This document shows positions 31,255 through 31,545 of a DNA stretch of 64,000 bases, one piece after another. Position numbers and translations under genes: made by a program. A model generated the notes under the pieces. That model did no database searches, had not been told where the DNA came from, and saw only the letters and a list, made by a program, of their open reading frames with translations. Each line of letters begins with the position of its first letter. Positions within the stretch are counted from its first letter, which is position 1. The stretch lies in assembly GCF_003334335.1 (NCBI RefSeq), contig NZ_QOWQ01000004.1; one strand, written 5' to 3'. The DNA comes from Escherichia coli (lineage in GTDB: Bacteria; Pseudomonadota; Gammaproteobacteria; Enterobacterales; Enterobacteriaceae).

Positions 31255-31545
31255 TTCCCGTGATGGATAAATAAGGGTAAGATTCCGCGTAAGTATCGCG
31301 GGGGCGTAAGTCTGGTTATAAGGCGTTATTGTTGCAGGCAGTTTGGTCACGGCCAGCGCGCAGCAACCGGAGCGTACAAAAGTACGTGAGGATGGCGAGC
31401 ACTGCCCGGGGCCAAAATGGCAAATAAAATAGCCTAATAATCCAGACGATTACCCGTAATATGTTTAATCAGGGCTATACTTAGCACACTTCCACTGTGT
31501 GTGACTGTCTGGTCTGACTGAGACAAGTTTTCAAGGATTCGTAAC

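Follow-up and report, generated by a model that had tools for sequence, protein, structure and literature searches.

A repeated palindrome, probably inserted between two frr promoters, accounts for the long pyrH-frr spacer of Escherichia coli K-12

Why is the spacer between pyrH and frr so long in Escherichia coli K-12? The question was raised by a stretch of 64,000 nt (contig NZ_QOWQ01000004.1 of RefSeq assembly GCF_003334335.1; hereafter, the window), which is E. coli K-12-type DNA and in which a position equals the NC_000913.3 coordinate minus 161,326. The first-pass annotation, made from the letters alone, had singled out a spacer of 291 bp with no assigned element in a block where most gene junctions were said to be short. 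The length is confirmed: pyrH ends with its stop codon at 31254 and frr begins with GTG at 31546, as in the K-12 RefSeq annotation, and both the PGAP annotation and the MG1655 reference annotation (NC_000913.3) leave the interval empty. That most junctions are short was an overstatement, as the other spacers of the block measure 257 bp (rpsB-tsf), 146 bp (tsf-pyrH), 91 bp (frr-dxr), 185 bp (dxr-ispU) and 12 bp (ispU-cdsA). The pyrH-frr spacer is nevertheless unusually long in comparison with its orthologues, which span 145–149 bp in ~35% of E. coli genomes and 146–170 bp in three other genera.

The spacer had been described as free of ORFs on the frr strand, and indeed a scan of the + strand gave none of at least 40 aa: TTG-started ORFs of 29–32 aa all lie within the repeat described below, and there is nothing in their favour. 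The minus-strand ORF that had been pointed out is present in the ORF list; it encodes 76 aa and covers the frr start, both promoters and the variable arm of the repeat, its 3′ end differs between alleles, and it is most likely spurious.

We propose, with a probability of about 0.85, that the spacer reached roughly twice its ancestral length through insertion of a hairpin-forming repeat of ~140 bases between the frr promoters. This explains the 291 bp and makes the spacer ordinary for its locus; that a repeated palindrome had entered an ancestral spacer of ~146 bp had escaped the first-pass annotation. The features concerned are the following:

31255–31545, no strand: pyrH-frr spacer, long allele, 291 bp (gene borders and RefSeq).
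31304–31449, no strand: segment found only in the long allele, 142–146 bp, its junction ambiguous by a few bases (alignment of alleles and outgroups).
31310–31448, + strand: imperfect palindromic repeat, probably of the RSA type, a 139-nt hairpin, with a family profile match at 31313–31443 (fold, nhmmer, repetition, covariation).
31369–31391, + strand: apical motif GGAGCGTAC-AAAA-GTACGTGAGG; G.U closes its 6-bp stem, and a GGA/GA internal loop follows beneath.
31434–31664, − strand: antisense ORF of 76 aa (mechanical ORF call).

A 491-bp query centred on the spacer was compared by megablast with 5,425 complete E. coli genomes and matched one place in each. The query is covered in full in 3,513 of them (long allele), including K-12 and B-derived laboratory strains; in the remaining ~35% it matches in two pieces spanning 345–349 bp (short allele; e.g., O157:H7, CE10 and ATCC 25922). 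When the window is aligned with a divergent long allele and the short alleles of CE10 and HS-02, the long form has 142–146 extra bases, and the flanks are otherwise identical. As outgroups, reached via the members of the 90%-identity Frr cluster, we used Salmonella enterica, Phytobacter and Franconibacter, whose spacers of 146, 151 and 170 bp, respectively, are without the segment and align with the short allele, TCTTA at the junction included. Since three outgroup genera lack the segment and match the short allele, the long allele appears to have arisen by insertion. In the four-genus alignment, the −10 blocks of the promoters are invariant, and 31304–31449 is missing from the three genera other than Escherichia. 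Among the family matches listed (at least 120 loci; see below), the element occurs at pyrH-frr only in E. coli and in one cryptic Escherichia lineage (L090); as the latter has the long allele, the history of the locus may include recombination or loss.

The filled site reads CGCGGGGG/CGTAAGTCTGG...CCAGACGA/TTACCC and the empty site CGCGGGG(G)GATCTTACCC. No target-site duplication is visible in the one filled/empty pair compared, and the junction is not clean, as the empty site has GATC where the filled site has GA. The GATC at the short-allele junction is a Dam site, which the long allele does not have. The two short alleles differ by four bases in the length of a G-run (149 bp in CE10, L002, vs 145 bp in HS-02, L003). 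An 8-bp direct repeat, GCGTAAGT, is found at 31287–31294, at the P1 start site, and at 31304–31311, at the left edge of the insert; it is not a flanking target duplication.

The inserted DNA is structured and repeated. The RNA of 31310–31448 folds with −61.8 kcal/mol (z = −3.6), and no shuffled sequence was equally stable. Because megablast shows one place per genome, the repeat nature is visible only with blastn at word size 11: the insert as the query then matches a median of five places per E. coli genome, up to eight, and six in K-12 (places per record at E ≤ 10 in a 28-Gb database), with ~86% identity over ~120 nt. Four of the six K-12 copies were located, two forward (pyrH-frr and cysP-ucpA) and two in the complement (pheM-pheS and ycbX-rlmL); those outside pyrH-frr are of full length. 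Seven candidate sites in K-12 (nuoL-nuoM, dnaG-rpoD, glnA-glnL, qorA-dnaB, asmA, tyrS and ybaK) carry no copy, and the Salmonella dnaN-recF copy, used as a query, returned only the known sites.

Furthermore, we scanned one genome per species with a 19-base core pattern and collected at least 120 stretches, that is, at least 120 family loci across Enterobacterales; all matches listed were confirmed as relatives by blastn. The hosts are, among others, Yersinia, Serratia, Rahnella, Hafnia, Pantoea, Erwinia, Dickeya and Pectobacterium, as well as Citrobacter, Salmonella arizonae, Klebsiella, Kluyvera and Buttiauxella. The family profile finds the frr-spacer copy with E = 2e-41 (nhmmer). The consensus termini, AGGCGTTATTG ... 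AAAATAGCCT, are terminal inverted repeats, the whole element is palindromic, and the apical motif is the most conserved part of the family.

In the 72 full-length copies, RNAalifold gave one long hairpin of 33 pairs, with compensatory double changes in 15 of them. Standard pairs fill 97.4% of the cells of the alignment against 88.8% in shuffles, and double-change cells number 184 against 47 expected; none of 500 shuffles reached either of the observed values. As a control, sliding the partners by one to three columns destroyed the covariation signal. With respect to the flanking genes, the element lies in the same orientation at 22 sites and in the opposite at 21, between convergent genes at 17 and between divergent genes at eight (~82 sites among the matches listed); such a lack of orientation preference is expected of an inserted element rather than of a dedicated leader. 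In sum, these data show a dimorphic insertion of a repeated element with a hairpin kept by compensatory changes and with transcription start sites on both sides.

These start sites come from published Cappable-seq and SMRT-Cappable-seq data from one laboratory, for K-12 only. The promoter region is composed as follows:

31245–31262, + strand: small inverted repeat CACGGAATAATTCCCGTG around the pyrH stop codon (read from the sequence; conserved in four genera).
31255–31260, + strand: putative P1 −35 TTCCCG, 17 bp upstream of the −10 (from the start-site position).
31278–31283, + strand: putative P1 −10 TAAGAT, within the invariant block GGTAAGATTC (7 nt upstream of the start site; invariant in four genera).
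31291 (genome 192617), + strand: P1 start site (Cappable-seq score 93.9; SMRT-Cappable-seq 192616).
31471 (genome 192797), + strand: minor start site (Cappable-seq score 39.7).
31476–31481, + strand: P2 −10 TATACT, within an invariant CTATACT (6 nt upstream of the start site; invariant in four genera).
31488 (genome 192814), + strand: P2 start site, the strongest in the spacer, with a 58-nt leader (Cappable-seq score 868.8; SMRT-Cappable-seq 192813).
31510–31545, + strand: conserved frr leader and ribosome-binding region, with the Shine-Dalgarno AAGGA at 31533–31537 (near-invariant in four genera).
31529 (genome 192855), + strand: minor start site (Cappable-seq score 3).
31544 (genome 192870), + strand: minor start site (Cappable-seq score 7.5).

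The idea that the spacer may hold the frr promoter is thus borne out by two main start sites and three minor ones. Both main sites are confirmed with full-length frr transcripts by SMRT-Cappable-seq, in which positions are numbered one lower. P1 and P2 each have a primary 5′ end with a −10-like hexamer 6–8 nt upstream, as befits sigma-70 promoters; a consensus scan, which called no promoter-like and no terminator-like site in the spacer, misses them because their −35 elements are too weak. The putative −35 of P1 is conserved as TTCCCG/TTTCCG in Salmonella, Phytobacter and Franconibacter, and is overlapped by the 3′ half of CACGGAATAATTCCCGTG. From CTGGTCTGACTGAGACAAGTTTTCAAGGATTCGTAAC to the GTG, the leader is almost invariant in the four-genus alignment. 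The repeat is located exactly between P1 and P2, the hairpin ending at −40 of P2 and the long-allele segment at −39, and the P1 leader measures 255 nt in the long allele and would measure ~110 nt in the short alleles.

Neither start sites nor 3′ ends are reported within 31304–31449 (+ strand Cappable-seq and Term-seq): the former are absent between 192617 and 192797, the latter between 190800 and 192871, and P1 and P2 flank the insert. The element consequently neither starts nor ends a detectable transcript. Term-seq 3′ ends are present at 192871 (window 31545, the base before the frr GTG) and at 192996 (~31670, 124 nt into frr), and neither position has a structure resembling a terminator; the ends may result from processing or pausing in the frr leader. 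Of the leader or small RNA surmised earlier, the leader stands, as P1 transcripts carry one of 255 nt, and the small RNA finds no support, be it from internal transcript ends or from Rfam. A permissive covariance-model scan of 30000–32500 gave no Rfam family at threshold, the sole sub-threshold match in the spacer being to RF02228 (sX9) on the minus strand, with 22.0 bits and E = 0.41 (gathering threshold, 44 bits).

The same data bear on three other accounts of the spacer. The first-pass annotation had seen no obvious terminator hairpin: the consensus scan agrees that there is no terminator, but a 139-nt hairpin is present, 55 nt downstream of the pyrH stop codon, a position in which it could act as the terminator of pyrH or as an attenuator between pyrH and frr. 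It has no U-tract, full-length pyrH-frr and tsf-pyrH-frr(-dxr) read-through transcripts were observed by SMRT-Cappable-seq, and no Term-seq 3′ end falls in the interval given above; that is, the combination of a G+C-rich stem, a U-tract and an in vivo 3′ end that makes an intrinsic terminator is not found here, and this account is largely refuted. An independent small RNA encoded in the spacer, for which the strong structure of the region and the weak minus-strand likeness to sX9 (with sub-threshold sX9 matches in six of six relatives) could be adduced, would lack a + strand start site between 192617 and 192797, a 3′ end in the element, and any promoter- or terminator-like site of its own, and the sX9 score is half of the gathering threshold; we give it very little credence.

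The length of the P1 leader and the 3′ end located exactly at the frr start codon, together with another repeat copy in the pheST leader, would suit a dedicated regulator in the frr leader, be it a riboswitch, a protein-binding operator or an attenuator. Most of that length is, however, the dimorphic repeat, which is missing from orthologous frr leaders and occurs at ~82 unrelated sites in either orientation among the matches listed; there is neither an Rfam match nor a terminator-like structure, and transcription from P2, the strongest promoter, begins past the repeat. We consider a dedicated regulator very unlikely.

Under the reading that we prefer, insertion of a repeat, an ancestral pyrH-frr spacer of ~146 bp would have carried two tandem sigma-70-type frr promoters, the distal P1 and the proximal, stronger P2, and an imperfect palindrome of ~140 bp would have been inserted between them in the Escherichia lineage. 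The element would then be transcribed within P1 and pyrH read-through mRNAs. Its RNA is expected to fold alone, as a stem-loop that emerges from the loop of a small stem already there, and the fold of the ribosome-binding region should remain as it was: in the predictions, the P1 leaders of the two alleles differ only by the inserted hairpin, which sits in the loop of a small CGGGG/CCCG stem predicted for the short allele as well, and the predicted Shine-Dalgarno structure is unchanged. The repeat may thus be tolerated because it is self-folding. On the DNA level, the region of P2 beyond −40 would be replaced by the right arm of the insert (~71% A+T from the sequence), now at −40 to −66. As one E. 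coli strain in three does without the element, it is not indispensable at frr, and it is most likely a tolerated passenger there, at most modulatory on frr mRNA stability or P2 strength. A modulatory effect may concern mRNA stability, the separation of the promoters, or P2 by way of the A+T-rich arm.

A stronger version of this role, in which the hairpin is a domesticated functional module at frr, we regard as unlikely. As RNA, such a module would be a determinant of processing or stability that uncouples the pyrH and frr mRNAs or protects both against exonucleases; on the DNA level, it would serve as an insulator between the two promoters or give P2 an A+T-rich, UP-like sequence. In its favour are the transcription of the repeat in P1 and read-through mRNAs and the A+T content of its right arm, which adjoins P2. 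An effect on mRNA stability was reportedly described for ERIC elements in Yersinia by De Gregorio and colleagues in 2005, and this too counts for it. So do other loci: copies are kept at the same sites across genera and families, among the matches listed, at dnaN-recF (13 loci), nuoL-nuoM (seven) and dnaG-rpoD (six). Site-specific variants are common to the dnaN-recF copies, which also differ from one another by compensatory changes and are 75–94% identical, compared with 41–62% at the fourfold-degenerate sites of the flanking genes; being far above neutral-site identity, those copies must be constrained, so that the term passenger may be wrong for the family and too dismissive here.

Against a module at frr, the gene evidently manages without the element in 35% of E. 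coli and in the other genera examined, and no 3′ end lies in or beside it. The main text of two RNase III target studies gives no site for frr or pyrH, and the site that it gives for pheM lies in the attenuator, not in the pheS repeat copy; RNase III processing of the hairpin was rejected on these grounds, as far as that text goes. Moreover, the G.U pairs at variable positions favour the + strand of the element by ~3:1, three G.U pairs being nearly invariant, and pairing amounts to 97% on the element's own strand against 88% on the complement. This bias tracks the element's own strand and not that of the host mRNA, being equal whether the element is co-oriented with or opposed to the flanking genes, and such independence argues against selection on the host mRNA. 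The bias is compatible with a selection that acts on the strand of the element itself, be it as single-stranded DNA or as its own RNA, or with inheritance from selected source copies.

At dnaN-recF, the whole spacer is one repeat copy in Salmonella arizonae, Klebsiella, Citrobacter, Siccibacter, Pluralibacter, Serratia and Pectobacterium (L103, 5087–5216; also L021, L023, L030, L035, L045, L055, L057, L085 and L094), in the same orientation in 12 of the 13 loci among the matches listed. In E. coli, dnaN and recF are presumably not separated by a spacer. The repeat is found on plasmids as well (Klebsiella, Citrobacter, Enterobacter and Pantoea); an identical copy, 88% identical to the query, is present on many plasmids beside a gene for an RND efflux permease (Klebsiella, Citrobacter, Enterobacter). 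One copy is carried by the temperate-type Yersinia phage vB_YenM_42.18 (18100–18231). Plasmids and phage are possible vehicles for horizontal spread of the repeat.

For the locus itself, these results close an annotation gap: the unassigned 291 bp consist of two mapped frr promoters and a repeat, the latter probably named in the 1997 annotation and dropped later. E. coli therefore has two alleles of the control region of frr, which encodes an essential translation factor, and they differ in the length of the P1 leader and in the DNA upstream of P2. Work on promoters, UTRs or CRISPRi based on K-12 is not directly transferable to strains of groups B2, D, E and F, including the short-allele strains named above (O157:H7, CE10 and ATCC 25922). 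The locus is otherwise ordinary, and the potential for discovery lies in the family only, that is, in the constraint on some of its copies and in a possible kinship of RSA, ERIC and sX9. The data suggest a neglected repeat family that is widespread, structurally constrained and possibly related to ERIC.

Other long spacers of the operon block are generally occupied by RNA elements or repeats as well. The 257-bp rpsB-tsf spacer holds a genuine ERIC/IRU at 29291–29409, 83% identical to the E. coli ERIC consensus and unannotated in RefSeq, so that spacers of one operon block contain two distinct palindromic repeat families in succession. The reference annotation has the sRNA tff/T44 upstream of rpsB (window 28386–28521) and the sRNA IspZ between dxr and ispU (window 33458–33518). 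The two families also occur within ~100 bp of each other in Erwinia mallotivora (L064; repeat at 9005–9134, ERIC at 9215–9341) and in Candidatus Pantoea formicae (L109; repeat at 1216–1345, ERIC at 1436–1557).

How, then, does the insert compare with known systems? ERIC, or IRU, is of similar size (127 bp) and is likewise an imperfect palindrome in transcribed intergenic DNA of Enterobacterales, with a hairpin kept by compensatory changes, a description which the insert matches. The two apices, written jointly as GGAGC[G/T]TAC-loop-GTA[C/A]GTGA, are nearly identical: they occupy the same place in either element and agree in 20 of 22 positions (p ~0.001 by shuffling), the two differences form a compensatory pair, and the closing G.U and the G/A-rich internal loop are common to both. 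The arms, in contrast, are unrelated (global alignment of the consensus sequences, p ~0.1). Membership in ERIC was rejected, as an ERIC query matches the rpsB-tsf element and not 31310–31448, the central 22 nt alone being in agreement; judged by sequence, the family of the insert is separate from ERIC.

A sister family has the same core of ~52 nt with different but complementary arms, its ends being GCGTAGCGAGCG...CGCGCAGTAGC. It occurs in Polaromonas, Rhodoferax and Curvibacter (L031, L048, L054, L084, L119), in Pseudomonas (L033 and L126, from MAGs), and in some Yersinia and Erwinia; further loci are L007, L050 and L075. All six sister-family elements tested against the sX9 model score below its threshold of 44 bits, at 26.6–37.7 bits. 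The likeness to sX9, a Xanthomonas sRNA, lies in the consistent partial matches to the model by the core of the family and by that of the beta/gamma-proteobacterial sister family. The differences are that every score is below 44 bits, that the matching strand is opposite to the better-pairing one, and that no transcript of the sX9 kind is documented at pyrH-frr. The main text of the Xanthomonas sRNA paper makes no mention of sX9. Tentatively, and with the odds rather against it, RSA-type repeats, ERIC and the sX9-like beta/gamma-proteobacterial repeats might form one superfamily, the hallmark of which would be a conserved apical hairpin, its 6-bp stem closed by G.U and set above a G/A-rich internal loop. 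If true, this would suggest that one machinery recognises or mobilises them all, with single-stranded DNA or the RNA of the element itself as its substrate, and the copies at dnaN-recF, nuoL-nuoM and dnaG-rpoD would have to be seen as old structural modules under constraint in essential operons, not as junk.

With MITEs such as YPAL/RU-2 and Correia, the insert shares its small size, terminal inverted repeats, presence/absence polymorphism, and many intergenic sites with no preferred orientation. It differs in that no target-site duplication is seen in the one pair compared, in that there is no known parent transposon, and in that orthologous sites of different bacterial families have retained some of the copies, an unusual trait for a MITE. 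RU-2 (YPAL) and RU-3 (a BIME-type repeat) of Delihas were also considered and rejected, as their sequences are different.

A parallel in terms of situation is offered by the glnA 3′UTR and its sRNA GlnZ, where a strain-specific palindromic repeat lies within a UTR as a stem-loop of its own. In K-12, GlnZ carries a REP as a self-contained stem-loop, with its functional parts intact (Walling et al.); that repeat belongs to another family, and the frr element lies in a 5′ leader next to a promoter, not in an sRNA. The O111-type insertion in the glnA 3′UTR/GlnZ, with a UTR of 230 nt, was left unnamed in its description (Miyakoshi et al. 2022). We found this insertion to be a copy of the frr-spacer repeat family (L060, 11250–11567, in E. 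coli SCPM-O-B-8794): the glnA-glnL spacer there measures 318 bp, which fits the 230-nt 3′UTR, and K-12 (L146) is without a copy at that site.

The nearest known system is RSA, which is said to figure among the short palindromic repeats of enterobacteria treated by Bachellier and colleagues in 1999. RSA was part of the original K-12 annotation (Blattner et al. 1997) and is no longer annotated in the current RefSeq; the repeats of the original GenBank record, as tabulated in a later paper, include RSA with a length of 150/151 bp and six occurrences, two forward and four in the complement. Like RSA, the insert is palindromic, intergenic and present in six copies in K-12, and the strands of the four located copies, two forward and two in the complement, are compatible with the published counts. 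The 150/151 bp of RSA compare with a hairpin of 139 nt, an indel of 142–146 bp and profile matches of 131–139 nt, values that come near the published length without equalling it; the comparison is one of counts and lengths rather than base for base, and no difference is known. Since the copy number agrees, and length, strand counts and palindromic nature are compatible, we think it likely that the insert between the frr promoters is the RSA repeat of K-12.
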